Origin: Ophelia neglecta
Taxonomy: Eukaryota
NCBI GenBank assembly: GCA_965285935.1
Contig: OZ260661.1
Span: 133,672,001-133,736,000, forward strand
Length of the DNA: 64,000 nt
Direction of reading: 5' to 3'
The number at the start of each line of letters is the position of its first letter. Within the stretch, counting starts at the first letter, position 1. The position numbers were made by a program, and so were the translations under genes. Positions 30,401 through 64,000 of this stretch are shown piece by piece. Under the pieces are notes generated by a model. It was not told where the DNA came from. It saw only the letters and a list, made by a program, of their open reading frames with translations, and did no database searches.

Positions 30401-30520
30401 ACGGTAGAATCGAATTATGAGGAACTCATTGGTGTTTCTTCAAATGGTGATGAAGCATATCCTACACAGAACAATAATCACGTATATTGTATTGTGCGTG
30501 CCCAAAATGAGCGACAATAG
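21460..30520 (+). CDS. CTLR3: chimeric C-type lectin-like receptor with truncated tail (possibly a pseudogene)
   Basis: Exons 21460-21535 and 21683-21845 (CTLR2-like); 28197-28480, ~29656 onward (stalk, splice sites unclear), 30027-30126 TM and 30289-30520 (CTLR5-like). A 14-nt deletion relative to CTLR5 gives TAG at 30518-30520; the ancestral end VENSVYGD* is still visible to 30643. WIGL is changed to LIGL. Confidence 0.7.
22450..26240 (+). mobile_element. Degenerate DNA-transposon transposase-like relic (tentatively Academ-like), interrupted by a LINE
   Basis: Fragments IGYCPVINASPTDLSTVYTLL, VFDQAIYA*, GFH..FLAVISKRFG.AGL.DL, STNGV (to ~23124) resume after the LINE as IRAHKMPIEGMQRLKW (~25712). 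Family assignment is from memory of these motifs, not from a search. Confidence 0.55.
23125..25710 (-). mobile_element. 5'-truncated LINE with uninterrupted RT ORF (23347-25713, 788 codons)
   Basis: RT motifs KAGGWDNI, YRKITLL, LDARKAFDTV, GLHQGGLLS, YADD; C-terminal CPTC-x8-H-x4-C knuckle; no endonuclease domain; 3' UTR ends in AATAAAAAAAA at ~23125-23135 on the minus strand. Confidence 0.95.
26352..26688 (-). mobile_element. tRNA-derived SINE, copy 1
   Basis: Minus-strand head has an A box (TGGCCGAGTGG) and B box (GGTTCAAATC); the body matches the copies at 46.3 and 59.1 kb; simple-repeat tail. It is absent at the paralogous position in CTLR5 intron 2 (~39940). Confidence 0.85.
26700..27100 (-). 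mobile_element. Old LINE RT fragment in CTLR3 intron 2
   Basis: Paralogous to 39950-40330; decayed F.KPF.TV and GV..GS.LG.LLFL motifs on the minus strand. Confidence 0.6.
27650..28110 (-). mobile_element. Probable 3' end of a non-LTR element inserted in CTLR3 intron 2
   Basis: Interrupts gatgatcatg|ggatgatgctaggc, which is contiguous in CTLR5 (~40870). The minus-strand end has AATAAA followed by a (CATA)n tail. Confidence 0.6.
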
Positions 30521-31699
30521 TCAAACTGTGAGTGAATTTTACGCGGTGCCCCACAAGCGTAATGGCCGATGTGAACCCGAACAGGATCGGATGAACAGGA
30601 CACCGACAGAATGCTAGTGGAGAACAGTGTGTATGGAGATTAACCTAAACATTTTTTCCGAACTGAAATATGATATTGTCATCTTGTAATAAAATACTCC
30701 ATTATTTTTAAAACTATTTTCAAAGCAAATCGCTGTATGATTTTGATAATAAATCGCTTGTTCTAATTCAACCCACTCGTGAAAAACCTTTGTCCACGCC
30801 GAATATAGTCTAGCTATATTTATAGATGGAACTGTAATTCTAATAACTGTGTTCCTATGTTCCTATGGCCCAAAATGATGCATCTTAATAACAGACGAGA
30901 AAAAGCTGCACTGCTAAGCAGCTGTTTTTAGCGATGCCATTTTTATATCGTTATATGTTCAGCCAATTTTACAAATTTCGCAATCATCGCAAAATTAACC
31001 TGTATGCAATCTCCCTAAGATGGCGCACGAACTGCCGAAAAGGGGCATTCACAACTTCGACACAATGTGCAAATTTTCAGTACAGAAATGTCAGATCGAG
31101 AAGGCCAAGTATATTGGGGCTTTTGCTATCGTGGGTTTGTGTGACACTCAGAAGTGTGTAGATATGTAGAGCCGTAGACCTATAAGTAAATACGTAACAC
31201 CAAAAGAATTTGAAATCAAGGGATGGTCTTTTTTCCAGGCACATCGATACAGGAGGGTTTGTGTCATTATTTCTTTGAAAGACACATCGAGCTCACCAAA
31301 GTGGCTTTTGACACCGCAGAAAGTATTAAACTACGTTCAAGCGTGAAAGGGTAGGCTAGTCTTGGGGCGGAACAGACGTGTTCTGGTCGCGAGTGGCCAT
31401 TCTTGGTATTTTAGGTTGCCAAAACACAAATAAAACATATCTACAAATGACTACGACCGGGAGAAACTTCGGGAACTGTCATATGGTATTTGGATTGCTA
31501 AAGGTGGACACGTTTATTACTTTTTGGCGTTTTTTTTCTCGTAGAATCTGCTCAGAACAACATTATATCACCCACTGTTACTTCTAGGACGAACAAATCC
31601 CTATTCACTGCAATACACAAGTGTGAAAGCCACCAAAGCAGTTCATTTGGGCATAATACCCTTGTCACCCTACTTGGTGGGGGAGTATAAAGACTGTTG

Positions 31700-33720
31700 G
31701 ATGTCGCACACACAAACTACTGGTCGGTCAGCAGCCCAAACAATACCAGTAAAACAAAACATAGAATGCTAGAGTATTTCAGAGAAATGGCACTTGAGAT
31801 TAAACTAGAGTTACTATGTGGAAAGACAGTGGAACAAGCCAAGATAATTGACGATCACAACGCATCCAAACCCATAGAGAATGGCAACAACATCGAGAGA
31901 ACTCATATCCTTAACTGAGCTAGTAGCTGAATCCTTGCGCGAAGACATGGATGGGGTAATCGCTTCGGTGGGTGACTTTAGACTCCCAGTACAGCTACAT
32001 CACAAGGCTATCCGTCAATTGGAGGAGCGCGACTTACATAAAGAAATAGAGGCGAGAATTACTCACGCAATACTGTATTGCATGAGAGAGGGGCGTGATA
32101 GGGTAGATGAACTAAAAAACGTGAAAAGCTATGTTCAATACACACTTGGTTTCGGGCGGGATGTGCTAAGAAGTATGAAATTTGTTGATATATACAGTCT
32201 CGGCAAGTTCAACCCAGCTAGAAGCAGAGGGATGCGTATTGACTTTCCCAGCGAAGATGGAGTGAAAGCATGCATTAATGCTGCTAATGCCCGGTGAACG
32301 AGCTGGCTTGTGGCCAAAGACGCTGCAGGGGGCCAGAGCTGTACTTTTATCAGTGGTGAACGCTCCCAAGCGCTTGGGAAAAATACCAGAGTTGGCTTCC
32401 CCGCCAGACTTTAAGTATGCGAAGATAATGGACCTGATATTAGGAAAGAGAGCGACTATGAGCCTGGACTTCGTCGTTACTCTAAACTGCTCATAGCCCA
32501 TGACATGTCCGAGTAAAGGTTCCAAGACATCTTTGAAGAATACCCTGCACTATGGGATGAAATAATTAAAGAGGAGCAAGAAACAACGGCGAAAACGGAA
32601 GCTCGCAAGGACAATGACATGAAACGTGCTGCCTCAGTGGGTCAATCGTCTCAGCCCATCCGGGCACAACGCGAACAAGATCAAAGGAAGGTGGAACATG
32701 TCAGCGACTATCCAGGAATCCCTTCTAGCCTCGAGCCCATCAATCTCACGTACCGTCAGCAAGGCGAAGGAGCAACAGTCGCAGTACCTGTGATGTCGGC
32801 GGAGCTGAAGGAATAGAGGTCCTGAACCAATCAATGCTAGACCCGGATGCCACGCAATATCCCACAGAATGTAATCAATCTTTGTCTGATCACAGCAATA
32901 CACCAGGCTCGTCGCGTCTTGGAGTCGCCAATTAGCTCCATAACTAACAAAACGGCTTATAATCTATGTGAAAGATAGCATCTCTAAACATGTTAGTTTT
33001 TATAAGTACCACAAGGATGTGTATGCATGGCTCAAGTATGAGGAAAAAAGGAGCAGCACAAAGTGGTTTGTTTGTGTGTTTTATCGTTCTCCGACTGGAT
33101 CAACTCACTCTGATAACTGTGATGGATTGAATGGCGTGTTAAATGACATTGGCATGCTTAGGGGTATTCATGGACATGAAACCGACGCCTACCTCACTGG
33201 TGATTTCAATGCCAGGGTTGGGACATATCCTGACCATCTTACAAGTTCCGGGCACTCGTCAGAGGGAATGCCAAATAGCATATGGATGAACACTGGCCTC
33301 GGTCCACAGCTGACAAGCAAACAAACAATGAGGGTTGCCTTCTGTATAGCTGCCGATCTCCTCATGGTTAACGATAGGATCGGCTCGCCGGATAATTCTG
33401 GGTCTCACACATACGATAAGGGGAATAGTCGTACTTGTATAGACTATGAACTAGTGTCTAAGCATAGTGTAGCTCAAACAGCTGGCTTTAATGTTACCAA
33501 AGCCACGCTTCTATCAGACACTCGTGCAATATCGGCATCTTTAGTTTCTAAAGGACTTCAGTACAAACGAGGTAAAACTGGTTGAACAGTGAACGGGGGA
33601 AAAGGGATCATCCAGAAAAGGTTGACCAGATGCAAGATATCATTAATACTAATGCTGAGATATTATGGTCAATAGTTAGTAATCTATCTGCCACTCCTGA
33701 GTCAAAAGCTAAATACTGTT
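31700..33720 (+). mobile_element. 5' part of a degenerate LINE (ORF1-like region plus APE endonuclease)
   Basis: 32968-33585 has APE motifs VFYRSP, LTGDFNAR, CIDYELVS and LSDT (SDH-like). 31881-32297 resembles LINE ORF1 (SLGKFNPARSRGMRIDF). No RT follows. Confidence 0.75.
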
Positions 33721-34378
33721 ATAGACTTAGGTGTCCCATTGTATTGGTTAGGTAAAATATGTTTACAAACATGGCGCTGCTGACCTTAAACCAAATCAGT
33801 TACCACCTTGGATGTGTTACCGACTGCAAGCAAATGAGAATAGACTGAGGATGGCTGAGTCAACATATCTCCGAAGTTTAATTTGCCCATGACCAAATGG
33901 GGTTGGGAGAGAGGGGGGGGGGGGTTAAATACGAGATCGACTTCACATTGCTTGGTACGCAAATAATTATTGAGTTACTTCATAATAAATCGTAATACAC
34001 TTTATAAAGACACATGCAATATGAGAACGACACATGCCTTGATTTTATAGTAAGGGCAGCGAGTGCGAAAGTGGTGGTGGATGGGTGGTGGTGGTGGGGG
34101 CGGGGGGTAGATATATTTACTACACCCCCACCCTTGAGGTTTCGAAATCAGTTTTCACCAGTCCGATAGATTTACAGAGGCAAAATATTCCCTGACATTT
34201 GATTGAGGCCTAATGTTGAAAGAAGACAGTCAACCTTCCACTAGTCACGGTCTTTCAAATACATTCAGGCTGACCTGGTTAAGTACCCAGCAAAACACAA
34301 ATGATAATACTCCAACTATAAAATCATGGAGAGGAAGAACGGGCTCTCCACGTGCAGCCAAAATGGTGTGTGGATAAT

Positions 34379-34560
34379 CTAGAACAATGCCACATCACCC
34401 AAGATAAGAATGTTCTCATAAGTGAGGGGAACACTGTCGAGAAAGTAAAAAAAAAGAAAAGCATTTACAATAAATACGTTTATTATTGATGGAGGCGGGC
34501 GATATACGGTGTAGGTTCTGACTGCATTATTGCTACATTGATTGAATATATTCAAACAAA
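34379..34560 (-). mobile_element. Short LINE endonuclease relic upstream of CTLR4 (shorter copy at ~4470-4560)
   Basis: Translation VYRPPPS...FLDSV...ENILILGD matches APE-domain motifs. Confidence 0.55.
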
Positions 34561-34986
34561 CTATACGTTGGGAGTCAATAATAGATATTGGCATATTCTG
34601 CTTGGAGAATTCCAACTCAATTATAACGTATGTTCGCTCATTTATGCCAACCTCCGAAATAACCATATACACGGAGCCAGCAGTCAAAATGGGATGGCGT
34701 CCAGTGGCTTGCAGCTGGTCGGACCACAAATGCATTTCAGGCGAATGTCTTTCCTATACTAGTTTAGATATATCAAATAACATGTTAACCTGTGCAATAG
34801 TTGAAAAGTCACTCCTTACAAAAAAATAATACAAGATGTTAACCAGACTATGACTATAGCATGTTACCATCTATATTGATAGCAGTTCAGGTAAAGCGCT
34901 GACTATTACCTGGTAAAAGGTATCCCATTTGACAGTGGTTCTTTTCCTTCTTTGCCATGAGAATCTTATAATTTGTGAAGTCTATC

Positions 34987-37107
34987 ATGGCGGAAAGTTC
35001 ACACACCCTTTCTGCATCCATATTACTGTATTTTTCATGGATTTTATTCGTACCACCATCAGGTATTTGTCTTAACATCATACGATATGCATACACCGTC
35101 AGAGCTTTCATATACCTATCTTATCAGCTATTAGGTGTATACGCCTACACTGTATAATTTATATCATACACAATTATGTACGTTAGGTAATTGACAATAG
35201 TATTGCAGGTGCAGTTTGTGATCCAGCATGGCAACAATACCATGCAAGTTGCTATTTTAAGTCCACTAGGGAAACATCATGGGTTGATGCCAGAGATTTG
35301 TGTATGAACATGGACTCCCATCTCGTATCTATCACAGACCAAGAAGAAAATGACTTTATCAGGCGTACGTTGTGAGTGACATTTCATACTACAGTTTTAC
35401 ATGTACGAACTTTTTGTATAAGTAGACTTTTAAACAACTGTAGAGAAAACCGTACTATCGTGGAAATCAAGATGAAGGCTTGACACATACAAAACTTCGA
35501 TCTTATACAATAATTTGCATCGAAATATATTGTTTATACCTTGACCAGACTTTTAAGGCTGAAATTGTAACATACAAGTAGTAGTACTAGTAGTAGTATC
35601 ACATGCATGGCTAGAACAATAAGATGAGTACGTATATATATACAGGGAACCTGCGTTTGTGGTGATCTGTGTAATAAGGTCACCTGCCCACCAAAGTCAC
35701 TAAATATTAGCCCAATCCTCATTTATGCCTGTGTTAACCGCCCATTAAGGCAAACTACATAATGTGGTTATTCCAAACTATTGCGTGACCTGACTAGACA
35801 GGTTTCAATGTATTACTTCACAGTATATAGACTGTGACGCCAACTGACAGGCAGGTGAAAACGCTGTCGAGCAATTGTAAATCATCGAAGGAATGTCCAT
35901 CAATGCTGCTATGAATATGCAAATGAGCAAACGCCGATCTCGCAAGTAGCTTTTGGTTTTATGAACGGAAAATGATTCCTTATCATGGGAGAACTTTTAG
36001 TATCCTTGCAATGTATTCACATCGTTTGTATCAAGGGAGCTTTTTATGCTAAATTAGGGCATTTACTGCCTGTTTTGAATTTGGTGTTATATCAAGAACA
36101 AAAATGGGAACTTTGTTCTAGCGATTTCTTCTAGAACCGTGTTATAAGTATAAATATAACAATTATTTAAATATCATATCTTCTTATAAAATTGGCATAA
36201 GCCTGCCGATATCCCCAATTTTATCGTCCCGCCATGACATTCAGATAATAATGAGGTGTTAAATGTCATGGCTGCAATGCATGTTTACTTTATTCCATTT
36301 TACCCCAGTTTATTCAAAAAACGCGATTACTGTCTATTTAAAGACGTTGCAGATCATCTATGTTGTTAGCAGGTTATAGTAACTGAGATTTTAGCTACAT
36401 TAGATTTTGCTTGGTATATGAATAAGACAGAAACGCCTGTCTGGATTACATTATTTGTGTTGGTATGTTAAATAAATTTAAATATTAATCTTTTTAAATC
36501 CCAAACCCGTAGTGCATTATGCACGGCTTCCTGCACAGAACACACATATTTATCAATGGTTTACACCAACCCGTCTATTTGCATCGGGTTTTCATGTTAC
36601 GGGTGTGTTAAGGGCTTGACAAGTATATTAGGGTTCGGTTCCGCAAGGGAACGAGTACTATATTGCCATTGTAAATTGCTACATTTTTTAAGCGTCAACA
36701 CAGAAATAGTAATTTACAACTGTATGTCCACTGCCGATAATATACATACTGTCATTGTCCTATAATATACACATTTATAACACTCCTTTGGTCTTTTTTA
36801 TGTATGACATATGTTGATTCCAGTGTCGAAATATGCACCGTTAGCACAGAATGTAAAGAACAAACACAAGATGCATGGATTGGATTGTCGAAAATGACAG
36901 ACATGTCCGGAAATGTGACACAACGACGAATGGACTGGATATGGGTGGATGGATCCAAATACCAATGGTCTAACTGAGATGGTAGTGCCCCAGTCCCGGA
37001 TGTCAGGCGTGAACCAACGGCATTCACAGAGAAAGCCCGAACACAGTACGATGGGAAATGGGCTGCCATGACCCCAAATAACATCAGGTTTATCTGTGAG
37101 AAAGTAG
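34987..37107 (+). pseudogene. CTLR4: truncated pseudogene copy of CTLR1
   Basis: Exons 34987-35062, 35209-35371 and 36824-37107 and their introns are nearly identical to CTLR1. TGG>TGA nonsense change at 36975-36977. Homology ends at ~37620 and no stalk, TM or tail exons follow. Confidence 0.88.
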
Positions 37108-38725
37108 GTAACCTCATAATTAGCTATTCAGTGTTACCATAGTGCTTTAATGCTGACCTGAGTGGCAAGTTAACAACAATCGTATCTATTGGCTAATGGA
37201 AAGACCCAATTCTGGTTTAGCAAACAAGATTTGTTTAATCGTGAAAAATCTTATGAAGAAGCAAAATTGATGAAATTGTGGTAATAATTATACACAACAA
37301 CACAGAAAGGGCCGATGATTTTTAAATATAGTGGCAAGATCAAATTCCTTGCAGAAAGCTTTTAATCTGCACGAAGAGCTTTATGTATGATCTAAACTTA
37401 GGGTAAAAAGGAACATGACCGAGGCTTATAAAACCATACTTCGCCAATGATACAAATTCGCCTATGATACAAAGTCTGTGTTGTTATGTACAGTATTTTC
37501 AACTTGTGTATTATTGCATGTATATATTTGTGTTCAAATAAATGGTTGAGTTGAAAAACTTGTATGGTGGACAATAAATTCATTGGTTAGGATATAACAT
37601 TTACTTGTAGTTTTAAATAGTAAAAGAGAAGGCATCAGAAAGATTCCTGCCCCGAATCTATAGGTAAGTTATTGGTATCTCGTATAACGTGTCACATATC
37701 TGCAATTGTGTAACAGCTTTGTCTATATAACTACATTGAAAAAGCGTAGGCATTGGTCCTCCATTATTGATGCTGGTAAGCTGTCCATGATTTATTCTAT
37801 GTATCTTATAAATCGTGAAGCGTCTGCTCAAAACATTGCCATTCGTTTCTCACAGGCGAGCTGAATGAATATGTCTATACGTTAAAATTCATGTTGTACC
37901 TTGAGCCTCAAACGGCATCCCAGACGCATACCCGCCTTACAAGTCTTATATTTGTAAACTTCTGTGGAAAGTTAATACTGTGTCCATTAGCTCGTGTAAT
38001 TTCGTCAATATATTATTATATACTGTTATTTGCGCCAATTTTAATTGATTGTAACCTACATTCACCACCAGGTGAGTGAGTTGACGGATCACGTAGGACG
38101 AACGACAACAGATGTCGCCTTTTTATGAGAAATGGGACTTTTTTCCTGCCTTTTTTAATCTCTTTCCCAGCGTGTAGTCCTAGCCGCCAGTCCAACCGTG
38201 ACGACACATACACTAACACAAGAGTGATTTATTTCCCTTTTTCCGTCTAGGGCGCAATACATCATGAACAATAATTATTCGAATTTATTGTCGATGTTGT
38301 CTAAGGTATGTTGTGTAATGTGTTCCAAGAAGGTTGCAGGTTGGACAATCTTGTAACGTAATTTGTTCACTCCAATACAAACTTGTCAAGGGCCCCATGT
38401 ATGATTTGGCGGTCTGCTGAGTTGAATATTAATAGGGTGTACTAATAAATTGAGATAAGCCTAAGGTGTTCACGCTTATTGGTTTACACATTATTTCATT
38501 CCTTAAACGCCACTGAATTTCAGTCAGCGGCCAAAATGCATAGTTCACTTGAAAGCAACAAGCACAAGATGTTAATCAGAGCATGAACATATTATAGCAA
38601 TATCTATACTCCAAGTGGTTCAGGTGAAACGTTGATTGTTACGCGGAAGCCGAGATAGACTGATTTAACACACTATTTCACTTCCTTGTATGCGCTGGAA
38701 TTCATATAGTCATGTGAAGTCTATC

Positions 38726-41700
38726 ATGGCGGAAGGTTCACACACATTTGATGTATTCGTATTACTGCATTTGTCATGGATCTTATTTGTGCCACAATCA
38801 GGTAATGTGTGCTCGGAATTACGAGCTTTCATAAATTATATCAGCCTTTATGTGGAGACCCTTACTTAATGTTTAAATTGACATTAAACTTTGCTACGTT
38901 TTGTAAATGAAAATTATATTGCAGTAGCAGTTTGTGATTCAGAATGGCATCAACATAATGGAAGTTGTTACTTCAAATCCAGTAGTATTAAATCATGGGC
39001 AGATGCAAAGTCGTCGTGCATGCATCTTGATTCCCATCTCGTATCTATCACAAGCCAAGACGAAAATATGTTCATCCGAACAACATTGTAAGTATAATTT
39101 CAGGTGACATATTTGTTCCGCTAACACATTTCAGCATTTATAAGTTAAAGTAATTACCAATTGTGGCGAAAGCCGTGAGAGCTGTGTTGTGAATTAAACT
39201 GCTGGTTGTACTGTATTGTATGTTTACATATCAAATAGTATGCATTGAAATAAATTGTATATATGATGACGTTTATTCAGGAGTGTTAAGGTTGGAATAT
39301 TCTTGATTTGAAATATAGCAGCGTCAAAATGACTAGTACTTTAGCTGCAGTAGTGTTTACTCTTAATGCATAAAAGCGCCATTTTTTATTCTCAGGATAA
39401 TGATACATTAAACCTCAACAGATATTACAGCATGTTCTTAGCATGCACATAAAACAAGTCTTAAATGTTGGTTTATACACAAACCCAATTATTTGCGCCG
39501 GGCTTCTACGTTTGGACATGCAGTATGGTATTCATAAGCAACGGTCAATTATTTATTTCGAGCCGACTTAATGGACTGTCGTTGAATTATGTTTCTACAT
39601 TGTCTTCCATTTATCTACTCCTGTTTTGTTTAAAAAACCTATACCTATACCTAGGTTAATGTCTACTAGAAGATCCATAAAATCAAAGAATAATGTAATT
39701 AAATGCTGCCATAAATTTCCCCTTGAATTTTTTAAACTTATTTTGGCAAACGGTATTAATTAAGAACGTAAGATCATATGAAATTCAACGTCCAAAGAAT
39801 TATTTATATATAATAAAAGAGTCCAAAGAATAATTATACCGAGGAATCTTTCCAATTGTTCTCAACTGATATACACATCAAAGGATATATTCCGTCGATA
39901 TTCAATGTAAACTACAATATATATTACGTTTTTTAACATAGAATCATTGAAGAAGATTAACCTTTTCTACATTAAGAGTTTCAATCAACGAATCCAAATT
40001 ATTATCATCTATAAAAACGTTTGTATCATCGGTAAACAGTACAGGAAATAAGGCCGATTATAAATTAATCATATCGTGTATATATAACAGAAATAGTAAA
40101 GGCCCCAAAATCGACCCAGGTAGTACACCGCAGAAAATAGGTCTGCTCTCGGAGGTAGTTTTGAGATATGACTCATATTAGGATCTAATGGTCGAATAAT
40201 TACTAAGCCATGCATGGGCATTCCCCTTATTCTGTAATTATTAACGGTGTCAAATGGTTTCGAGAAATCTCCAAAATACCATATTCCCATCCAGAAGAGC
40301 ATTTGAAGTTTTGTCAAGAAGTATGATATGAAATTTTTACTGCAATTAATAAATTGGTGATTATTTAAGATCCAACAAACCGCGTGCCTTCACACTGTCT
40401 CTACTACCTTATTCACTGCCGATTTCCCTTAACTATACACATTGTAAGACTGGCTATAAATTACAATGCGATGAGAAATAACGTCCTGTTAGAAGAACGA
40501 TTAGCCGAGGATGAATGGATAGACTTAATGCCCGGGTAAATAGAAAGTGGCACCGGTCCATACATTTTTAAGAAAGCGACTAGGGTATACCTGAATACGT
40601 TTTTCCTTACTTATAGTATTTAGGAGAAACACAATAGAGAGAGCAAATAGCAAAACGTTGACCGCAGGGAGATTTTTCACATTATCGTTGGATGATTTGG
40701 TGAAATGTTATAATATCATACGTTTTAGCTTTCAACATTCTTTAATTTTAAGAGAAACTGCTTGCGGTATTAACATTAACTACTAAATCAACCAAATTTA
40801 TATTTATATTATCGGCTAGCCACCTAGGATGGTATAAATACAAATCGACTTATCATACTCCCGTGAAATGATGATCATGGGATGATGCTAGGCAATTCCG
40901 TATCAGGGAATTCTTTCTCGCCTCCATCTGACTATTTTACACGCGACTTTTTTTTATTTCAGTATCAAGTTATGCACTGATAGCGGACAATGTATGGAAC
41001 AATTACAGGATTTATGGATTGGGTTAACTAAAACAAGAGGCCTTGAAGGAAATTTGTCACAACGACGAAGTGACTGGATGTGGGAAGATGGATCCAAATA
41101 CGATTGGTTTAACTGGTATGGCAATAACTCAGTCGATGACATGGACCGTGAACCCAAGGGGTTCACAGGCAAAGCTGTAATGATGTACGATGGGACGTGG
41201 GCTGACAAGAACCCCAGTAAAATCAAATTCATTTGTGAGAAAAAAGGTAATATCATAACGCCTTATGCTTTCTTATCTTGACGCTTCGATGTTAACTCAA
41301 TTACACTCTCCATATGTTTCCGGGAAGACAAAGTATCGTATAAGGCGTCCATACTTTGAATTTTTGGTTTCCAAACTAGTGAGGTCTTTATTTGAGTTTC
41401 GCCGCATACGCTTAAGTTGGTCTGTCAACCTTTCTTCTGGCTTTGGCAATAGTCCACGTTATCTGTGTTGTCCAGTGGCACGTACAGTTTTGCGCAATTT
41501 GAATATAGAAATCTAGATCAAATCAATTTTTGTATTTCCAACCTGGATAAAATCTAAGAAGAAATGTAGGTTTGTATATTGGAGGAGGCTCCTACCGGTC
41601 CGGCAACTCGTGACTGCAGCTATATTATTGAGTGGTGACTGAAAAACCTGTCTTCACATACAAGAATCTGTCTCCTACTAAGAGAAAGAACATCATAAAT

Positions 41701-42968
41701 TTCTTTACTGTCTTAAAAAGATTTTGAAAAAAGGTCAATTTATTTTTGGTTCAGCCTTTCCGCCGCATATCGACAGGTTTGTTAAAAAAAGTCGTCGGAT
41801 GAGGAAACCCTGTTTAAAATACAAAATATTCCTATGGAGTGTTATTGTTCTATGTTAACTGTCATCTTTCCTACCTTTATGTGTTGTTTCGTAGTGCATT
41901 GCATTGCATAGACATGCAGCGTGTACACATGTCTAAATTTCTTTCTCTTTTATTCTTGTAGCACACAAATTTGATTTGACGGAAGCTTCTATTTCAACAA
42001 AATCGCCCTTCGACGAAGTGACAGCTACCAGACATAGGCCATCGATCACAACCTTAGGCGTGTCGGACAACAACCATGGTCTTCATAATTCTACTTTCAC
42101 AGGGGCACAAAATATGTTTTAATTTTATAAGTCATTAGCCCTTACTAACATGTTTCTTGTGTTATTCATAAACGAGTATTTAACAAGAGATCTTGTGGAA
42201 CTCAAAGCTTACCTAAAATCACTGTTAATGCTTGTCTTCAATTCGCCACAAATAATAATCTGTTAACACCATACGTATATAGGTCTAATGTGTCAGTTAT
42301 TTCAACTTTATATAGCTCTTTTTTCCAGGCCCCTCTCTTTACATTGGCATCGCCGTGGGATTGGTATCACTTATTGCTTTAATAATAATAACTGTAGCAG
42401 CTTTGTTTTGGAGGAAAATTAGGAGGAGGTATTTTGTTTTGGATTTAACATATCTAGTCTCATTGTTTGTAACTTATTGTCCTACTGTTACTTTAATGAA
42501 AAATGTGCGTTCGATGTTTTTTGTCATAAAATCCACCGAATCCTCAGAAATAACGTAGTTGGAATTTTGTTTAAACACATCTGATGTTTCAGGGAAAAAA
42601 ACGAGGATCAGGAACGCAACATTTATTATAATACGAGAGAAGGAATGGCAGTAGACATTGGGAAGCATGAGACAAATGAACCGAATGCCTGTAATGATTT
42701 GGACACAATAGAAACGAATTGTCAGGATGTCATTGGTGTTTTTGCAAATGGCGAAGAAACACATCCTAGCAATACACAGAGCAATAATCACGCTAATAGT
42801 ATTGTGAGTAAGGACCCGGGACCCAAAATGAGCGACAATAGTCTAACTGTGCGTGACATTTACGCGGTGCCCCACAGGTATAATGACCGATATGAAACCG
42901 AACAAATTGTACCGGATGAACTGGACAACGACACAACGCTGGTGGAGAACAGTGTGTATGGAGATTAA
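38726..42968 (+). CDS. CTLR5: type I transmembrane C-type lectin-like receptor
   Basis: Exons 38726-38801, 38925-39087, 40963-41246, stalk from 41962 (donor unclear), 42329-42428 TM (LYIGIAVGLVSLIALIIITVAALFW), 42593-42968 tail. Open and in frame (332 aa) if the stalk exon is skipped. Confidence 0.82.
39950..40330 (-). mobile_element. Old LINE RT fragment in CTLR5 intron 2
   Basis: ORF 40069-40317 contains DFSKPFDTVN; neighbouring frames give GS.LGPLLFL.YI.D-like text. Confidence 0.65.
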
Positions 42969-54130: not shown

Positions 54131-54443
54131 CCAGATGCGCAGTAGCCGTAGCTTGGCATACCAGTACATGTACTTACGATCAATTTAGCTAGAGCTAGCT
54201 AGGGACCAATTATTTTTTGCGCCCTTTATTATCGCGACCTTTATATTTGGCGAACATTAATGTTTGCGATTTTGTAACCCTCGCGAAAGTCGCGAAATAA
54301 AAAGCGCCCAAACAATAAGGGATTTACAGTAAATACATTTATTCTTGTATTATTTCGTTTCAGTTTCGGGAGTTTGGTGTAATTTTGTCAACAAAGCATC
54401 ACCTCAAACCGATCTGCATCTCTATCCTACCATATCAACCAAT

Positions 54444-57400
54444 ATGTTGGATGTCTTATTTCATACTACTTTGTTCCTTTTATGGATAGTATGCATCAGT
54501 GGACAAACAGGTATCTCTCTTATACTGATAAATCCCCGACATGTATCTTATGAAGGCGGTTCATCCATGTGTCAATAAAATCATAATTTTGAAAGTTGAG
54601 GGTTTCAAAAACCTTTTTTGCCTATTAATTGACTAACTGATCCTAACATGAAATATACTCAACTTAAACTGCAATATTAGGCCTTCTAATACTCATATAT
54701 AGTCAGTCAGCTATTTTTATTTTGGGTTGATTTAGCAGCTTTATTTTCATACATTATTGTTATCGTAATTTCGCTGGGGTTTTATCATATTAAGGTTATT
54801 TCATGCAAACGGCTCATTTTTGTACAGCACAGTGGAGGTGCCATTTAAAAAGCAAATCTGTTAACAATGATTTCAAGCAGCATTCTTTCCCAGAAACATT
54901 GATTATAGTAGACTAGACCCGAGTATGTTTGCCAGCATTAGTTTAAAATAAGAATCTTATGTTAAAAAGATAAAAAGAAATTAATGTATTTTGACTTTGC
55001 TGTAGGATGGCTTGAGACCCCTGAAAATGGTGTTGTCCACGTGTGCACAGGAGACACAGCTTCCTTGAGATGGAGGTACGACGAGACTCTTGGCACATTT
55101 AAAGGTGAGCATTTACACACTTCAATATAGGGTTGCATTTCGGTATTGTATCAATATTGATGTATTGGTATTGGTATCAGCCTGAACTAACTATTTCAAA
55201 CCTTCAGCATGACACATTTTTAAGCAAAAGGGTTGTAATTAGAATCTAGGGTATAGAAAGTTGTAGATTTACAAAATTTGCAAAAGGGTTTTCATCTGTA
55301 CATTTTGTTTTAGGTCAAGTGTTGCATTTTGGAATGGTTTGAACAAGAATATGGTGGCAGGGGGGGGGGGGGGGGGGTGGATGAATAGACTGCGCCCTAG
55401 CAGGGATCTCCCTAGGTGAAAAACCCATGAGCAAAAAGTCTCACATTCCCAAAGTAATGGGATATTTCCCAAAATATTCAAAATATGCAACTACAGTGAA
55501 ACCTGTGAATTAAGACAACCCAAGGGACTGGAAAATGGTGGTCTGATTTCGGAGGTGTCTGTTTAGAAAGGTTATTTAACATTGAACATAAACAGAATGG
55601 TCCTCACATCAGTGGTCTGAATTGACAGGTGGTCTCATTATAGAGGTGGTCTCTAAGGCAGCTTTCACTGTATTCATATAGTGGTTCATAAATTTGAGAT
55701 ATTCTCCCCTTGAGAATTATTGAAGATTTTTAGTTACTGAATCCAATATGAGAATATTCCCATATATATTTGCCTAGGGTGATCCCTGCCCCAAGATGGT
55801 GAAGTTGAATAACAAAAGGACTTGAGATTAGGAGTTAAATGTGAAACTGACTGCAATATACATGTACCAACAGATTGAGGCCATAACGGTAGACCTGCTG
55901 GATAGGGTGAGCTACATAAAACTGGTCACATGGGTGGGATGGGACCTCTATGTACTTGTCAGACGGGATGCTCTGTTCCAAACGTCAATTTAAGGGCTCC
56001 CGCACCCTAAAATAGCTAATTTTTTATAGCCGAAGCGCCCTACAAAAATCTATTTTTGGAATTCGGGGCTTGCCCCGAAGACCTTCTACAGCAGTCAGAA
56101 ATCTGATCTTTGGCGATTTTCGATGACGTATTACTAGCTTCGAACTGCTCCAACTTTTCTGTGTAGCTTGATGCCGTGTGCCTTAAAAATTAATCTGCTG
56201 TGCTTTCAGTCTGTCTACACTTGGGTATTATGTCACATCGGTATCAAATTATTGAAGCTTGCGACCTATTTTAGGTTTATGTAAGAAACACTTTTACCGG
56301 TGAAGGAGATTAGCAGGTTTTTTTAGGCGGCTTCCATAGACGGCGAAATTTACCATGGGTTACGGGACAAGTTACAATACCTCCTATACTGCGTAGATAT
56401 GTCAAAGAAAAAAATGAATCAATTATCTATTGGAGACTACATAGTGAATAAAGTAGATTTATTGTTATTTCTAAGAGCACTTAGTGACACACTTATGTAT
56501 ATGATCTTAAAATTCTTCACTGAATAATACATTGCTAAGTGGGGTAGTCGGTAAGGCGTCGGACGTCGGACTGACTTTTTTTAGGCCTCGTGTGTTCCAA
56601 CCCGCGTCAGGCCGTCAACTCTTTTGCTGCATTTTCAAAATAATTTTTGCGGTTTCTTCCCAGCTTCTTCACAGCTTTGCTCATTTACAAATATATTTCT
56701 TGGGTTATTTTGGCAGCATTAAATTCATTATCCAGGGAGGCAAAGGAGGTGGCCTTTCTCAATTTCAGGGGACCCCTTCAGAATAATGTTTGCTATGTTA
56801 ACTGGTGAGAAGAAACTGATATTTCTGATAAACCGTTTAACAAATCCATTTTATGTAGGCCTAGGCCTATAATTCCACAGAAGGCCTATTTCGTGAAGCC
56901 TACATGCAGATATATGCACTGCTAAATTATCGAGCATGCGCTTCGTCAGCAAGGGCGTAAATAGGGGTGGGGGGGTTTCAGGAGGTTCGTCCGAACCCCC
57001 CTTTGTTGGCTGACTTAACTTGAGTTGTCAAAAAGATTGTTCTATAGTTCGAACCGCAAAATGTACGAACCACCACCAGAAAAACCTGTGTTCTTTCCAT
57101 TTTCATGTCGTGCTGGGAACGCCCCTGGTCAATCACCGGTAACCTCAGACCGATCGGTAAAATCAGACCGCTTAACTCAGACCGCCACACCGGTACAATT
57201 ATAGCTTACTGCATATACTTAGTTGCTGCTATGTGTACTCTACCCAGACAAACCCTCTGCCTGGCCCCGTAATTCCATTGTTGAGGCCTTTTGGCCCTTG
57301 TTTTTAAATTTTGCCCTAACTAGGGTAATTATTTACAAATTGTGCCCCATGTAGGATTATTTTATACCAGGTTTTGTCATGATTTAAAATAGGCTTTCAG

Positions 57401-57991
57401 GGAAAGAAATAAAAACAAAATTTCATCATCAGAAGGCCCTGTTGAAAACTCAGCAGGCCCTGAAAATTTGGCATAAAAGAGTCCAGCCAAAATATGTACT
57501 TGCCCGCTGGGCCTGGGGGTAGAATTCTAATAGGCCCGCCCCTAAAATGATAGGCCCCAGGCCTACCAGCCCATGCTTATTTATTTCCCTGGGCTTTTAA
57601 AACCTGTAAGCCGAGCATCCTAGTCTAAATTGTAGCTTGTTTCCCCCTCAAAACCCCCTAAAATGCAATTAAAAACTTTTCTGGGTTCATTCCCTTTTTT
57701 TTCAGTTTAATTATTAGGAAAATTTCAGATAAATATATTAAGCCGGTGTGTAATATTTGTGATTTTCTCACCCAGGGATGAATGTTGTTCGCAGCGAGCA
57801 GGCGATCGTGCTGGTGTCTAAGTTCGGCACTGAACCGCCTCAACCAAAGGATGATCGGGTTACATTCTTACCAAACGCCGGAGCCAACATCTCCAATGTC
57901 GTCCTGGGTGATGCTGGGAGATACGTGAGCACTGTTGTCTTCACAGATGATAGTTCTATCTACAATGATGCAACACTGGAAGTCTATGAAG
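54444..57991 (+). CDS. 5' exons of a secreted or membrane protein with an atypical Ig V-like domain (partial gene)
   Basis: Exons 54444-54510 (signal MLDVLFHTTLFLLWIVCISGQT), 55006-55104 (WLETPENGVVHVCTGDTASLRWRYDETLGTFK) and 57776-57991 (GMNVVRSEQAIVLVSKFG..DDRVTFLPNAGANISNVVLGDAGRYVSTVVF..DATLEVYE), all phase 1 with GT-AG. Ig hallmarks: G-x-T-A-x-L, R-V, I-x-N-V-x-x-x-D-x-G-x-Y, L-x-V. No downstream exons identified. Confidence 0.78.
55401..55788. mobile_element. hAT-like MITE containing a nested pogo-type MITE (55492-55672)
   Basis: Outer TIR cagggatctccctagg / cctagggtgatccctg; inner TIR tacagtgaaacctg / cagctttcactgta. Confidence 0.7.
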
Positions 57992-59085
57992 GTAATATTT
58001 TACTTACCATAATGGTAAAAATGTTGGCACTGCGTTAAATTCATGCTTATCCAAAAACTGACACTTGGTGACTTTTGAATTTCATGGCTAGATATATAGC
58101 TTGTATATATACGTGTGAATACAACATTCATGAGATGATTTCCTGACCGATATTATTTTTTTGCAAAAATGCACAAGTATAATCCTGTGGGAATATTTTT
58201 ACCATTACATTATATGTTAATATAGTGAAAAGGCTAAAGACATTGGCTTTAACAGTAGTGGATAGTCCCAACAAATTCTAGTGTCCAGGTGAAAATATGT
58301 AGGTCTTTTTGGGGAAATTTTGCAACTATTAAAAAAAACAAATCTAGTCACCCAGCCCTGCAATTAGCATCAAAATCCACAGAAAGGCACACACAAATGC
58401 ATTCAAATCTTATCCTAATTTTATAACCCCTACACATAGTAACCTTTGAACCCTGGGCCTTCCCTTACCACAAACCTTGCCATAATCCCTTGTGAGATTG
58501 AGTTTTCGTCAACTGACACTGTGTTAATTGATTGTTTGTCTTGGCTTTTGCAGTAAAGTGGTATGTATATGCAAAATTGTTTTATTTTCGCCCATCGGCC
58601 GGCGGAATCTATATGACATTTATGGACCTTCTGCTACCCCAAAAAACTCAATGGAGGGGGGGGGGGGGGCGCTTATTAGAGCAGGGGCGCTTATTGGAAT
58701 GAATACGGTATAGACTAGCGCACATATTGGGGCTGATCTACTTTTTTAAATGTTTTGGACAACTGCCCACACTTAATTTTTGGTGCAACAACTGACGGGC
58801 ACTATTGGACGCTTATAAGTCTGTAAAACTCTGGAAAATTTTATGATTTGCAGTTACTTTCCATTGCGTGTATACTGTGTGTTATGAGTCATCAGGTCCA
58901 AAGTACACCCCGCTACTGTTAGAAGCATTCTCAGTGTTGCTGCACCCTTCACTGTCCTCCCCTATCTCACTTTAGAGCAAGCCCTGCCTCGGATCTACTT
59001 AGTAGTAGTAGTAGACCCTCCTTTCCATTGCTTTACCTCTGGCCACTAGCCAACAAGGGCCACCCAGTTAGAAAGGGGTCTTCTT

Positions 59086-59390
59086 TTGGTTGTTTGTTTG
59101 TTTGGGGTTTTAAGTGGCTTTCAATACTTATATGGTCACATCGCCACATTGCCTTCTTGTGACAGTGGGCTCAATGCCATCTTTATAGTGCAACGACAGG
59201 GAACCCAACCCAGTCACATTATACTGACACCGGGTTGACCAGTCCTGATACTACCCCTGAAATACCGGGCGCCTGGCAGGAGAGCTATCAGTACCTATTT
59301 TTACGACTTGGGTTTGATGTGATCGAGATTTGAACCCCGATCTACCACTTGCGAGGCAGAGATGCTAACCACTCGGCCATGCTTTGGTGG
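59086..59390 (-). mobile_element. tRNA-derived SINE, copy 3
   Basis: A and B boxes on the minus strand, same body as the 26.4 kb copy, (AAAC)n tail. Confidence 0.85.
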
Positions 59391-59525
59391 TGGGTCCTCT
59401 TTTAGGTGCTCTGAGTTGGGTTCCGTTTAAATGATAGATCACATCAATCATTTAAATATTATTTATTATTATCATTGAATATATTTACTCTCCAGTTAGT
59501 GGTGTAAATAAATAAATATATTAAT

Positions 59526-60220
59526 CAGGGATGTGATTTTTCCGGTTTTAGCCGGAATTCCGGTTTTCGAGGGAGAAAAAGACGACCCTCGTGATTCGCA
59601 CAGATCCATTAAATTTTTTTTTGGGGGGGGGGGGGCTTTGGCCAATGACCATTGCTAAGGTTGGCTCGAACGATGCATGGAAGTCGTCCATGGTTTTGCA
59701 CTGTACTATGGAAGTACATCATTCGTACCTCCTTTCATGAGTAACAGTGAACTGCACACAAACGTGTATTTGATTGGTCGTCCGCTGCTTTGACTACATT
59801 CAGTATCCAATAGGATTGTCCGAAACAAAACAGTCTGAACAGCGGGAAGGCATGTGCACATGTGTGTTGCTCTTCCTATTTTTAGCACGTGGCCTGGATC
59901 GGTCTCAAATCGCACCCAGCTCAATCGTATTTAGGTAAGTCATGACATTATATAACCAAGCAACTATATCAGAAGCAACGTTAATCTTTAATAAGTTTTG
60001 ATATAGACGGTTAACAGTTGAGTTATCACCTGAACTATCGCGACCAACATTAAAAACTTGTATTATCGCCCACTGGTTTGATTTGAGCAAACGATCTTTA
60101 AAAAGACGCCCCTAGGACCCCCACTGGGGCTTGGCCCCTGGACCCCAATGGAGTCTAGGAGGCCCCCACGCCCCCGGCTAAATTTTCAGGTTTTTTCTTG
60201 AAAAACCAATCACATCCCTG
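59526..60220. mobile_element. hAT-like non-autonomous element
   Basis: Perfect 13-bp TIR CAGGGATGTGATT / AATCACATCCCTG with attaat on both flanks. Confidence 0.7.
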
Positions 60221-61880
60221 ATTAATATATAGGTGCACTTTATGGGGGGGATGGGGCACTTCTGTTTGCAGGCACCGCACCCAGGCTGGTGGATTAGAGT
60301 GCCCCCCCCCCCCCCCCCCCGCTGCCCAGAACCCCTGTTACCCTTATATTTATATAAAAAAAAACATGAGGCCTGTTTCAACATTCAACCCATCCTATGC
60401 ATATCCAATTTTTATTTGCCTAAACTATATTGTTCAATTTTTTTTATTTTCCTTTTCCTGTGTCTCTTTTTAACGTCCTTCGTAAAGCAGAGGTAAATAA
60501 ACATGTAGGGATGTCATTTAATGTGGGCAACACCACCAAGATTGGTTCTAACATGGCAAACAGATGCCTGGCTCTGGTATCAGCCACCACTTGATGCTTA
60601 GGGGTGATACTATGGGAGGGAGGGGGGGGGGGCATTTTACTTTGAAACAAACAATTTTTTTTCTTCAAGAAGGTAACTCATACAATTTTTTTTGGCAGAT
60701 AAATAAAGCAAACAATTTATTTTTCCTGGATTTTCAGACAAACAATTTTTTTTCAACTCTAATCTTCAGATACAAACAAAGCATGATTAGCTGCATAGGT
60801 GGCTGGAGCAATTGGTTTTGAAATTTTCTTCAGACTTTTTTTTTCTAACTTTCCCCCAAAAAACTTTTTTTTTCCTCCAATCATCAAAGCAAACAATTTT
60901 TTTCCTGGAAATTGGAAACAAAAATTGTTTTTTCAAATTCTTGACAAGCCCCCCCCCCCCTTACAGAATCAAATGAAATGCCCCTTACATGTATATCAGC
61001 ATGATCTGGGTGTACCTTCTCAGTCAACTTCCAGCTAGGGCAATGAACATGAATTTTAACCACACTTTCAATTGGCCGTCTGCCATCACCCATGACCCTT
61101 TGAGGGGGGGGGGGTCCTTCTTATAGAGGGCAGCAGTGTGCCACTGAGGTTTCTGAAATCAGTGTATAAATACCAGATTTTACAAAAAAATTGTTATCCA
61201 TTCAGATATCTTAAAGCAACATATTCCTAAGACACTGAGCTTTAAAAATGGCCATACATATTCTCACACACAGTTAGGCAATTTTTTATCTCATCATAAG
61301 CAATAAATGGTCATCACATTATGCTTCATACAATTCCATAAAGATTGTGATGAGAATGAAGGTCCTTAAGCAAGGCAATAACCTTGGTTTTGTGATTACC
61401 AGCCATTATACTAGCTCATACAAATACCAGATCAACAGATAAAGTGCCAACTACAACTCGTTGCCGGCCACGTGCGCGTGGAACCGCACCTCAAAGTCAG
61501 GCTAGGTGCGGCTGAAAGTGCCAACAGGTGCGGCTGCAAGTGAAGCAGGTGCGGCCGGCGCTGCAGTTAGATCGCCAACAACTGCTAGGCCGGTGCGAGT
61601 GGAAGCTCCAGTTTATTCGACGGCTGCGGCTTTATACTGCCCACCTGTGTCTTTCACAACGAAATTCGACAGGGAAACTAGCTATAATTTAATTTGTACC
61701 AAATGTACCAACCCATCCTAATACTAGATGCTTAAAAAGGACACCGGTCCCAGGGGCATGACCGTGCACTGGTCTCACGGGCTGACTGATATCTTCTAGT
61801 CCAATCCAAGCTTCCCCTAATGATCTATTACATTGGGTGGCATCCTACAATATACACTGGGGTCCCATGCACTTCACATG

Positions 61881-62703
61881 TACAGTGAAACCTGTGAATT
61901 AAGACAACCAAAGGGACTGGAATATGTTGGTCTAATTTTGGAGGCGGTCGGTTTAGACAGGTTTTTTTTACATTGAAAGTATACTGCACAATCCTCATAT
62001 TGGTGGTCTGAATTGGAAGGTGGTCTGTATATTAAGGTGGTCTTTAAGGCAGGTTTCAATGTACAAGGAGGGGCTGTTCAGTTTAGTGCTCTGGTGTCCC
62101 TCATAAATGTAGGCCAGGTGGGGCTTATTGTTTTACCTGAGCAGGAACTTGGTTACACAAAGCAAATTGGCAGGTCATGACACCTACCGACCAAGTTATT
62201 AAACAACAACACTACTACAATAGGCGGGAGATTCACCTGTCTACATAAGACTGCAGTCAAGCACATTGATTTAATTCTTAATAATTTCCCAATCTGTTTA
62301 AGTTTTAGACTGGCCTCAAATACAAGACCTACATGTACAGTGAAACCTGTAAATTAAGACCACCCAAAGGCCTAAAAAAAGGTCTGATTACAGGGATAGG
62401 TCTGTGTAGATTTGTTTAATTTGACTATGAAAAGGGACAGTTTGGTATTCATATTAATGGTCTGAATTGAAAGGTTGTTTGATTATACAGGTGGTCTTTA
62501 AGACAGGTTATACTGCATTTATACAGTGAAACCTGTGAATTAAGACCACCAAAGCGACTTGGAAATGCTGGTCTGATTTCAGGGGTGGTCTGTTTATACA
62601 GGTTATTTAACATTGAAAGTATACAGCATGGTCCACACATTAGTGGTCTGAATTGACAGGTAGTCTGATTATAGAGGTGGTATTTAAGGCAGGTTATACA
62701 GTA
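61881..62703. mobile_element. Three ~180-bp pogo/Tigger-type MITEs (61881-62063, 62336-62517, 62522-62703)
   Basis: Each begins TACAGTGAAACCTGT(G/A)AATTAAGAC and ends in a degenerate inverse (caggtttcaatgta / caggttatacagta); internal ggtggtct repeats. Confidence 0.8.
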
Positions 62704-63235
62704 TTTATACTATTAAATAACTTAAAAATACACTGTACACTGTGGAAAGCATATATTTCTCACTTGCATCTGTTTTCTGGTTCCAAGGCAGCATTTATGT
62801 GCCATTCAGGCGAGATATGATCACCAATATCGGCGGCCATGTTTTTGTATGGCAAATATACCAGTAACTGCATTCAGCAGGTGGCACCACCAGCAGTTGT
62901 TTCTGTGCCTACAAGTAGTACTTCGGTTATAATAATATATTTAGCAGGCAAATATGCTGTATCCATTCAATAAAAACACCAGTTCATGTTTATTCTTACA
63001 TTTATTAAGATATCATATTAAATATGTGTATACAGATATATACATGAAACATTCTTGTAGCCTAGAATTTACTTCTGGGCTAGTTGGATTAGCAGATACT
63101 GGTAAGTTACGTTTCAAATGGCACGGTCCAAACATAGCACTGTCAAAACGTCTATAAATAGATGGACTCAAGTGTACCTGGGAACTGACAAGCCCATGCT
63201 GTCTATATGTCAATGTTATTGTTATTACATATGTC

Positions 63236-63941
63236 CTAGAATCCGTTGAAGGAGCTGTCTGAGTCTGAGTCATTTAATAACAACTCCACATCCCGATCGT
63301 CAGCACATGCTAAATCGTCGTAATACGACTCGTGTGCGTTGGGTTGGGCTTCGGCAGGCTCAGCGGCCTCCAGGGGGGTGTCCTCCCATAGGATGTCGTC
63401 CTCGGTTCCATCATTGCATTCGAAATGCAACATTTTTTAAAGCCGTTTACGATGATCTAGGGATCCAGCTCTTGCCAAGGGTCCACGATCCATTGACAAA
63501 TAGTGTTCATCTCCACTTTCTGTTGACGACCAGTGGCAGGGAAAGTGTGTTGTCCGCCAATCATCCACTCGTTCCACTTCTTGGTGAGTAGAACCTTGAA
63601 TGGGCGGTTCACAGAGACGTCGAGGGGCTGAAGATGCGAAGTCATACCGCCTGGTATAATGACAAGGTCAGTGCGTAGCTCCTTGAGTTGGGCTTTGACA
63701 GCACCTTGTGTGCTCTGAAACTGTCCAGCACCAACATACGACGACGGAGGAAGCCACGGCTGGCCCATACGGAGCGCAGCCAGTCCGCTGTAAGTTTCTC
63801 GTCCATCCACCCCTTTGCTTGGACGCGGACGATGACTCCAGGTGAAAAATCCAGCTTGGGCATTGTTTTCCACTTAAATATAACGTAGGGGGGCAACTTC
63901 GTTCCGTCAGCGAGGCAAGCCAACATGACCGTACCTCTCAA
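63236..63941 (-). mobile_element. Frameshifted pogo-family (DDE_1) transposase relic
   Basis: TVMLACLADGTKLPPYVIFK..KGWMD..LVLDSFRAH, then after a frameshift IIPGGMTSHLQPLDVSVNRPFK, then an acidic tail DGTEDDILWE. Confidence 0.9.
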
Positions 63942-64000
63942 TACTGTGCTTCAGTTATCATGGTAATTGAACCAAATTACACTGATTGATGAATACATGT

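Follow-up and report, generated by a model that had tools for sequence, protein, structure and literature searches.

Can an immunoglobulin (Ig) V-type domain dispense with both its core disulfide and its core tryptophan, and what kind of protein would carry it? The question is raised by a stretch of 64,000 nucleotides (nt) of the Ophelia neglecta genome (GCA_965285935.1, contig OZ260661.1, positions 133,672,001 to 133,736,000, forward strand), referred to here as the window. An earlier note, made from its letters alone, had described a V-like domain with Trp in place of the B-strand Cys and had proposed an adhesion or recognition receptor. We find that the window holds the real, intact 5' end of an Ig superfamily (IgSF) gene with a non-canonical V domain. 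We put at about 0.6 the probability that its three exons begin a cell-surface IgSF protein, a receptor that crosses the membrane once and engages a further protein on a cell surface through its V domain.

An intact 5' gene end encodes a split V domain

The window is AT-rich, with a GC content of 33-48% per 2 kb, and contains spliceosomal introns and retroelements, which mark it as animal DNA. The two motifs on which the earlier note relied, GDTASLRW with Trp at the B-strand Cys position and DAGRYVS with Ser at the F-strand Cys position, were both located on the plus strand (Table 1). They lie in exons 2 and 3, which meet at a phase-1 GT-AG junction, and the domain is thus split over two exons, as had been read. 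Every intron is GT-AG with a pyrimidine-rich acceptor, and every junction is in phase 1. Spliced together, exons 1-3 give 127 open codons, corresponding to a signal peptide of ~22 residues and a domain of 105 residues. The signal peptide was called from hydrophobicity by eye and from its likeness to the N-terminus of the homologue P0018. One more exon upstream is implied by a pyrimidine-rich acceptor whose end is at 54363, although it was not located.

The gene model was examined with a profile of 12 homologous domains and half-domains, built without any window sequence and run against all 2921 stop-free six-frame window segments of at least 15 residues. Exon 3 ranked first (E 2e-15) and exon 2 second (E 8e-4), and the next match, at 45539-45661, had an E of 0.43 and was taken as chance. 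When 33 choices of middle exon were compared, one of which skips the exon, the two that close at donor 55104 reached 77-78 bits; none of the rest exceeded 55. An alternative acceptor at 54970 scored similarly but was dropped for want of a pyrimidine tract, which acceptor 55005 has. The gene model is sound in view of the profile ranking, the middle-exon scores and the acceptor at 55005.

Half of the V-set signature, including the pin, is replaced

The mature domain contains a single Cys (residue 36, A' strand) and two Trp (residues 24 and 45). The canonical Cys23-Cys104 disulfide is not possible, the two positions being occupied by Trp and Ser. Since residue 45 is the last Trp, no register can supply the C-strand Trp (Trp41), in agreement with the earlier reading. 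The register of the C strand varies between alignments; the residue at Trp41 is probably Val, and only the absence of Trp is certain. The domain thus lacks both parts of the core pin, the disulfide and the C-strand Trp. Its pin positions are 62 residues apart, a short V frame.

Huene et al. (PMC9546547) list eight signature positions of the V-set. Four are kept here, namely Gly16, Arg75, Asp98 and Tyr102, which are Gly38, Arg83, Asp101 and Tyr105 of the precursor. The four lost are Cys23 (Trp), Trp41, Leu89 (Ala) and Cys104 (Ser). The Ala at the Leu89 anchor of the E strand, nine residues before the Asp of the EF turn, adds to what the earlier note had read; four close homologues have Ile, Leu, Val and Leu there.

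Evidence for a V-type fold

Searching the PDB sequences with exon 3 at E up to 10 returned 33 matches, all weak (best E 0.002), of which 29 were IgSF chains (DCC, ROBO, CD2, CEACAM and contactin) and the remaining four collagenase. A profile of the close homologues again found IgSF chains, with E down to 2e-11. Atlas features gave V-set 0.94 both for exon 3 and for the homologous domain, and Pfam recognizes V-set in the homologues P0018, P0016, P0014 and P0017, each of which spans both exons in a single chain; for P0018 and P0016 the score falls short of the curated cut-off.

The structure was predicted for the P0018 domain, which is 34% identical over 103 columns, in place of the window's own spliced domain. 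The best AlphaFold model had a pLDDT (predicted local distance difference test) of 86, and the other four scored 56, 47, 43 and 37. The best model shows strands A', B, C, C', D, E, F and G, with C'' reduced to a two-residue bridge and the A strand unassigned. Foldseek matched it to MPZ, TIGIT, nectins and CD2/CD58 at a template modelling score (TM-score) of ~0.8, and CD48 and CEACAM were also among the adhesion-type V domains matched structurally. VIA-align gave a Z of 14.1 to TIGIT (root-mean-square deviation (rmsd) 2.6, 101 residues aligned), 13.7 to JAML (rmsd 2.3, 102 aligned) and 13.6 to MPZ (rmsd 2.4, 105 aligned). As these Z values are tied within ~2 units, the modelled comparison identifies the fold and not the family. 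The check by AlphaFold and Foldseek, although made on the homologue, thus bears out the proposed V-like fold, and modelling supports the window domain as an Ig V-type fold in the broad sense used for domain 1 of the Hydractinia Alr allorecognition proteins and for CD2. A homodimer prediction for the P0018 domain, with the alignment not used, scored 0.00 and gives no evidence either way.

The B-strand Trp is shared by a small family

An exhaustive search of 1.84 billion representatives at E up to 0.001 gave 18 matches, of which 15 were viewed. Six were judged family members, three were canonical Cys-Trp-Cys V repeats and six were unrelated repeat proteins, whose scores sum over repeats. The true relatives are at most 52% identical to the window domain, and together with the scarcity of matches this is the pattern of a fast-evolving family. 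It also argues against a conserved housekeeping adhesion molecule whose first domain has diverged, as an orthologue of DCC, ROBO, contactin or nectin would be. DCC and ROBO were the best PDB sequence matches, which speaks for this reading, but these matches are weak, cover only the D-F strands and sum over several I-set repeats; we consider this explanation extremely unlikely.

The closest homologue, the half-domain P0010 (52% identity), has Ser at the same F-strand position. P0018 and P0016 are 33-34% identical to the window domain, and the domains of P0014 and P0017 24-27%. Ten homologous domains are complete: one each in P0018 and P0016, five in P0014 and three in P0017, the last eight being near-repeats in two proteins and not independent. 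In all ten, the B-strand Trp is accompanied by an A'-strand Cys that precedes the Gly16 position by two residues, and the F-strand Cys is missing throughout. The C-strand Trp is kept in eight of them, all in P0014 and P0017, and is lost in P0018 and P0016 as in the window. Position 104 is Ser in one half-domain (P0010) and Cys in the other (P0020), while Tyr102 is present in the window domain and in all 12 homologous F strands. Judged by these alignments, the B-strand Trp is a trait of the whole family, here called the Trp-pin family, and no peculiarity of the window gene.

With P0010, P0016, P0018 and P0020, and more distantly with P0014, P0017 and P0025, the window domain has in common the A-strand Trp, the A' Cys, the B-strand Trp, the NAG of the D-E loop, DxGxY and, P0020 excepted, a residue other than Cys at position 104. 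P0014 and P0017 differ from it in the kept C-strand Trp and in a longer C-C' region. In P0016 the whole domain apparently lies in one open frame, as far as can be judged from protein only, so that the internal intron may not be universal. The P0018/P0016 and P0014/P0017 groups are related, as the close-homologue profile matches P0017 from the B to the F strand in hhalign (probability 96%, E 5e-9).

The Trp-pin family reaches gastropods, since P0025 is a Batillaria attramentaria protein, and this makes a spiralian origin of the window plausible. Over 30% of the searched region, P0025 has an identity of 76% to P0017. Its layout is Ig, coiled coil and C-terminal fibrinogen domain, and from this fibrinogen end, disulfide-free V domains appear to occur in FREP-like proteins. 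In P0014, P0017 and P0025, several Trp-pin V domains alternate with a second Ig-like module.

The window gene might accordingly encode a secreted protein of the gastropod VIgL type (FREP, CREP, QREP), a multimeric opsonin that continues after its V domain with another Ig domain and a coiled coil and ends in a head of the fibrinogen, C-type lectin or C1q kind. This would fit the profile match to P0017, which has V, Ig and coiled-coil modules, and the fibrinogen domain that ends its relative P0025; the Ig domains of VIgLs are, moreover, reported to be hard to detect (PMC9334734). The window domain is, however, closer to P0018 and P0016, with which it has the loss of the C-strand Trp in common, than to P0014 and P0017. 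P0018, the only full-length member of that closer group, is a single-pass protein without a lectin domain, and the lectin genes upstream each have their own signal exon. We therefore hold a VIgL-type product to be doubtful.

The rest of the gene and a proposed mechanism

Since P0018, the closest full-length relative, is single-pass, a membrane receptor is likely. This protein of 524 residues consists, in order, of a signal peptide, the V domain, a Cys-bounded segment, a Thr-rich stalk, a small beta unit, one membrane helix with a juxtamembrane Cys, and a tail with a basic helix. A Cys stands just after the G strand. No ITAM (immunoreceptor tyrosine-based activation motif) was found in the tail, and no Pfam I-set or Fn3 domain was found in the protein, the model being poor in that region. 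The model of the whole protein has a mean pLDDT of 54, and Foldseek returned V-domain matches only. We take its outline to recall the Ig-mucin receptors.

Exons of the window gene beyond the third, which the earlier note had hoped to recover downstream, did not appear: a splice-site scan, tblastn with the downstream parts of homologues, and Pfam found no convincing fourth exon in 57992-64000. Pfam likewise gave no match on 27 long frames between 43500 and 63600. A word-index search with exon 3, covering proteins of 126-2000 residues, did not recover the gene's own full-length product (none of 41 candidates). A profile search with 8000 scored sequences gave four matches, P0018 and three long multi-Ig proteins, and the latter were not used.

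The lack of a fourth exon in 6 kb is what would be expected of a decaying or orphan 5' fragment, deprived of its downstream exons and without a functional product. The DDE transposase fragment at the window end, the poor core residues (Ala at the Leu89 anchor, Ser on the F strand) and the damaged copies in the neighbouring lectin array point the same way. Against this, all three exons are open, in phase and flanked by canonical splice sites, P0010 has the same F-position Ser, and an intron of ~6 kb with insertions is also found in lectin copy 3 of the window. Decay is, in our judgement, distinctly unlikely.

Several observations also weigh against a membrane receptor with a recognition role. 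No transmembrane exon was found within the window, and Pfam found no family in the three exons alone, exon 3 having no match of its own. The structural model is of a homologue's domain, with one of five models confident, and P0018 itself models poorly after the V domain (pLDDT below 50 for residues 129-254). P0017 and P0025 have a secreted-type layout (Ig, Ig and coiled coil, with fibrinogen in P0025), so that, as far as these layouts tell, the membrane anchor is not universal in the Trp-pin family. Finally, a common fold does not show function. Of the receptor that the earlier note had proposed, the exported N-terminal domain therefore stands and a membrane anchor is likely through P0018, while the membrane and tail exons were not found in the window.

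For the single-pass receptor that we favour, we suggest a mechanism in four steps. The domain core would be held by packing and not by a disulfide: Trp45 would fill the space of the lost disulfide and C-strand Trp, facing the small Ser of the F strand and Ala of the E strand, and the Arg-Asp salt bridge and the tyrosine corner would fix the base of the domain. Huene et al. (PMC9546547) proposed a similar core filling for Alr. In a second step, the family-invariant Cys36, which we place at the domain's base, where the A' strand adjoins the end of G, would bond to a putative partner Cys in the next module, encoded by a later exon, and so fix the angle of the domain. Exons beyond the window would then supply a stalk, a single membrane helix and a tail, on the pattern of P0018. 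Lastly, the V domain would serve as the membrane-distal binding module, its GFCC' face engaging a cell-surface protein by analogy with TIGIT, nectins, JAML and CD2. The resulting role would be adhesion or cell-cell recognition, possibly in immune cells.

Neighbouring lectin genes and other elements

Upstream of the Ig gene, and separate from it, lie the five tandem C-type lectin genes of Table 1. The stop of the last one at 42968 rules out a lectin-Ig fusion; the Ig gene ATG follows 11.5 kb downstream, in accord with the ~11 kb noted earlier. Membrane segments were seen for lectin copies 1 and 5 and Tyr-bearing tails for copies 1, 2, 3 and 5. In the copy 1 tail, YEEL stands 12 residues from YERL; this ITAM-like pair is widely spaced and includes SDYERL of the immunoreceptor tyrosine-based inhibition motif (ITIM) type. 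An ITIM-type motif is also present in copy 2, which like copy 5 ends in NxxY, and a terminal NSVYG motif is common to copies 2, 3 and 5. Copy 4, in which self-BLAST found no match to the membrane or tail exons of copy 1, is probably a pseudogene, and the tail exon of copy 3 is frameshifted or shortened. An intron of copy 3 also holds a reverse transcriptase (RT) frame of the long interspersed nuclear element (LINE) type, and a second RT element is broken.

A small gene at the upstream end of the window encodes a protein of ~66 residues with a signal peptide, a short Thr-rich core and a hydrophobic C-terminal stretch resembling a glycosylphosphatidylinositol (GPI) signal. Its shape, we presume, recalls CD24/CD52. 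Dispersed and short tandem repeats occur at four places; they include repeats with ~23-nt spacing just upstream of the Ig gene, a ~140-nt unit present three times and a ~190-nt unit present four times.

An exon scan and a six-frame profile found no paralogue of the Ig gene in the window. The wider recognition-gene complex that the earlier note suggested is thus not established, the Ig gene being single-copy here. By analogy with a precedent in Biomphalaria sudanica, where hyperdiverse regions mix C-type lectin, Ig and Fn3 single-pass genes (PMC10875847), a recognition cluster is plausible, as a hypothesis that one adjacent gene does not establish.

Table 1. Positions of the Ig gene, its landmark residues and other features of the window
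Feature	Position	Strand	Remarks
Probable 5' untranslated part of coding exon 1	54364..54443	+	Presumed from the acceptor ending at 54363; no ATG in this part
Coding exon 1	54444..54510	+	67 nt; ATG and signal peptide; phase-1 donor
Coding exon 2	55006..55104	+	99 nt; V-domain strands A, A' and B
Trp24	55008-55010	+	Exon 2
Cys36, the lone Cys	55044-55046	+	Exon 2
Gly16 equivalent	55050-55052	+	Exon 2
GDTASLRW motif	55050-55073	+	Exon 2
Trp45, at the Cys23 position	55071-55073	+	Exon 2
Intron 2	55105..57775	+	2671 nt; phase 1; between B and C strands within the V domain; holds a dispersed-repeat copy at ~55480-55680
Coding exon 3	57776..57991	+	216 nt; strands C, C', D, E, F and G; salt-bridge pair Arg-Asp; D-E motif FLPNAG; tyrosine corner DAGRY; a single N-glycosylation sequon; phase-1 donor
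DAGRYVS motif	57910-57930	+	Exon 3
Ser at the Cys104 position	57928-57930	+	Exon 3
Start of intron 3	57992..64000	+	At least 6 kb; remaining gene presumed beyond the window
Five C-type lectin genes	4988..42968	+	Own signal exon each; two-exon lectin domain
Lectin gene starts	4988, 11992, 21460, 34987, 38726	+	
Lectin copy 3, tail exon	30281-30660	+	Matches copy 5 over more than one frame
Lectin copy 4	34483-37626	+	90%-identical duplicate of the 5' part of copy 1; in-frame stop at ~36975 in second lectin exon
LINE-type RT frame	23350-25752	-	801 uninterrupted codons; RVT_1 E 1.5e-23
Second RT element	~18600-20400	+	Broken
Two-exon gene of the ~66-residue protein	1480-1522 + 2546-2703	+	
DDE_1 transposase fragment	63460-63950	-	Two frames (E 5e-16, 4e-8); in presumed intron 3
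Dispersed and short tandem repeats	53729-54120, 47960-48422, 55480-55680, 61865-62710		

Comparison with known systems

V domains free of the disulfide are already known, as are mixed clusters of lectin and Ig receptors. The earlier note had drawn a parallel with CD2 and CEACAM, which holds for the missing disulfide but not for kinship, the matches being of fold only. In the CD2/SLAM and CEACAM V domains the C-strand Trp is retained, and the Cys23 position is taken by an aliphatic residue and not by Trp. The window domain resembles their N-terminal V domains in being presumably membrane-distal and without the canonical disulfide, the likeness consisting of weak sequence matches and of the CD2/CD58 TM-score, with a structural-alignment identity of at most 20%; unlike them, it has no C-strand Trp, and these are vertebrate families. 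CD2 is named as an exception to the canonical disulfide (PMC12051499). The likeness to TIGIT, nectin, JAML and MPZ, the best structural matches of the P0018 domain (Z 13-14, rmsd 2.3-2.6) and likewise short in the V frame, is one of fold only, the top Z values being tied across many V domains. The V domains of these four carry the canonical disulfide.

To the gastropod VIgLs there is a link through the distant family branch with the Ig-Ig-coiled coil-fibrinogen layout. VIgLs are built of a signal peptide followed by one or two Ig domains and, at the C-terminus, a lectin domain; any C-terminal exons of the present gene would lie outside the window. The Ig domains of Biomphalaria FREPs are defined by a complete cysteine loop (PMC7588048), which the window domain does not have. 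Filters for such a loop, as used in mollusc Ig surveys, would miss Trp-pin domains.

The system closest in its core is domain 1 of Hydractinia Alr. In 27 of its 29 sequences, Trp, Phe or Tyr stands at Cys23 and Trp41 is lost (Huene et al. 2022, PMC9546547). Our by-eye count in Dataset S11 of that paper finds Trp at Cys23 in 20 of the 29, so that the Trp at this position in Alr, mentioned in the earlier note, is confirmed. Like Alr domain 1, the window domain is an N-terminal V-type domain after a signal peptide, with no B-F disulfide, Trp at Cys23, no C-strand Trp and the Arg-Asp salt bridge kept. The authors knew of no V- or I-set domain outside Alr in which disulfide and core Trp are both missing, and expected many pinless domains of this kind to escape detection (PMC9546547). 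In the literature that we searched, which was largely non-subscription and had the primary QREP/VIgL papers of Gorbushin outside its scope, no V family with a B-strand Trp was described outside Hydractinia.

The window gene could be a true homologue of Alr domain 1, a polymorphic self/non-self marker with allele-specific homophilic binding. A pin replaced in the same manner, by an aromatic residue at Cys23 and by hydrophobic ones at Trp41 with the salt bridge retained, its uniqueness to Alr in the eyes of those authors, and the neighbouring array of Tyr-tailed lectin receptors would suit this, and the second Atlas match of the homologous domain is a cluster whose commonest phylum is Cnidaria, recorded for two members only. 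Yet Alr Ig domains are single exons without exception, whereas the window domain is split. None of the 29 Dataset S11 sequences, compared by eye, has the PNAG motif of the D-E loop or the A' Cys that precedes the Gly16 position by two residues, and Tyr102, part of the DxGxY tyrosine corner here, is kept in only seven of the 29 Alr domains (PMC9546547). Relatives of the window domain retain the C-strand Trp (8 of 10 domains) or the F-strand Cys (P0020), and such intermediate pins suggest stepwise loss within the family and hence convergence with Alr. On these grounds we did not file the gene as Alr, and direct homology is very unlikely; specific kinship with Alr is not supported by this comparison by eye. 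Judged from the alignments, the pinless trait is probably common to both by convergence.

The two systems may also differ in their wider organization. The Alr ectodomain continues with I-set/Fn3 domains containing six invariant Cys, none of which was seen in P0018, and Alr has one membrane helix, often with an ITAM or ITIM, where P0018 has no ITAM. Alr genes form a tandem multigene complex with extreme polymorphism and allele-specific homophilic binding, whereas no tandem Ig family was seen in these 64 kb.

A broader alternative is that the Trp-pin V is an old cnidarian-bilaterian lineage, the present family comprising the non-hydroid counterparts of Alr domain 1, and that the locus and its lectin array form a polymorphic self/non-self system, like the natural-killer complex with an Ig self marker added. 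We give this little credence; if it were true, relatives would have been overlooked because mollusc Ig searches demand the cysteine loop.

The window domain, P0018 and P0016 are V domains outside Alr without disulfide and core Trp, in a family with different motifs. The intermediates of this family, in which the B-strand Trp is accompanied by a kept C-strand Trp or, once, by an F-strand Cys, provide a natural series for replacement of the pin, and the series bears on the question of whether the Alr solution arose once or repeatedly. In the structural sense of a replaced pin, and by analogy, the window domain works like Alr domain 1.

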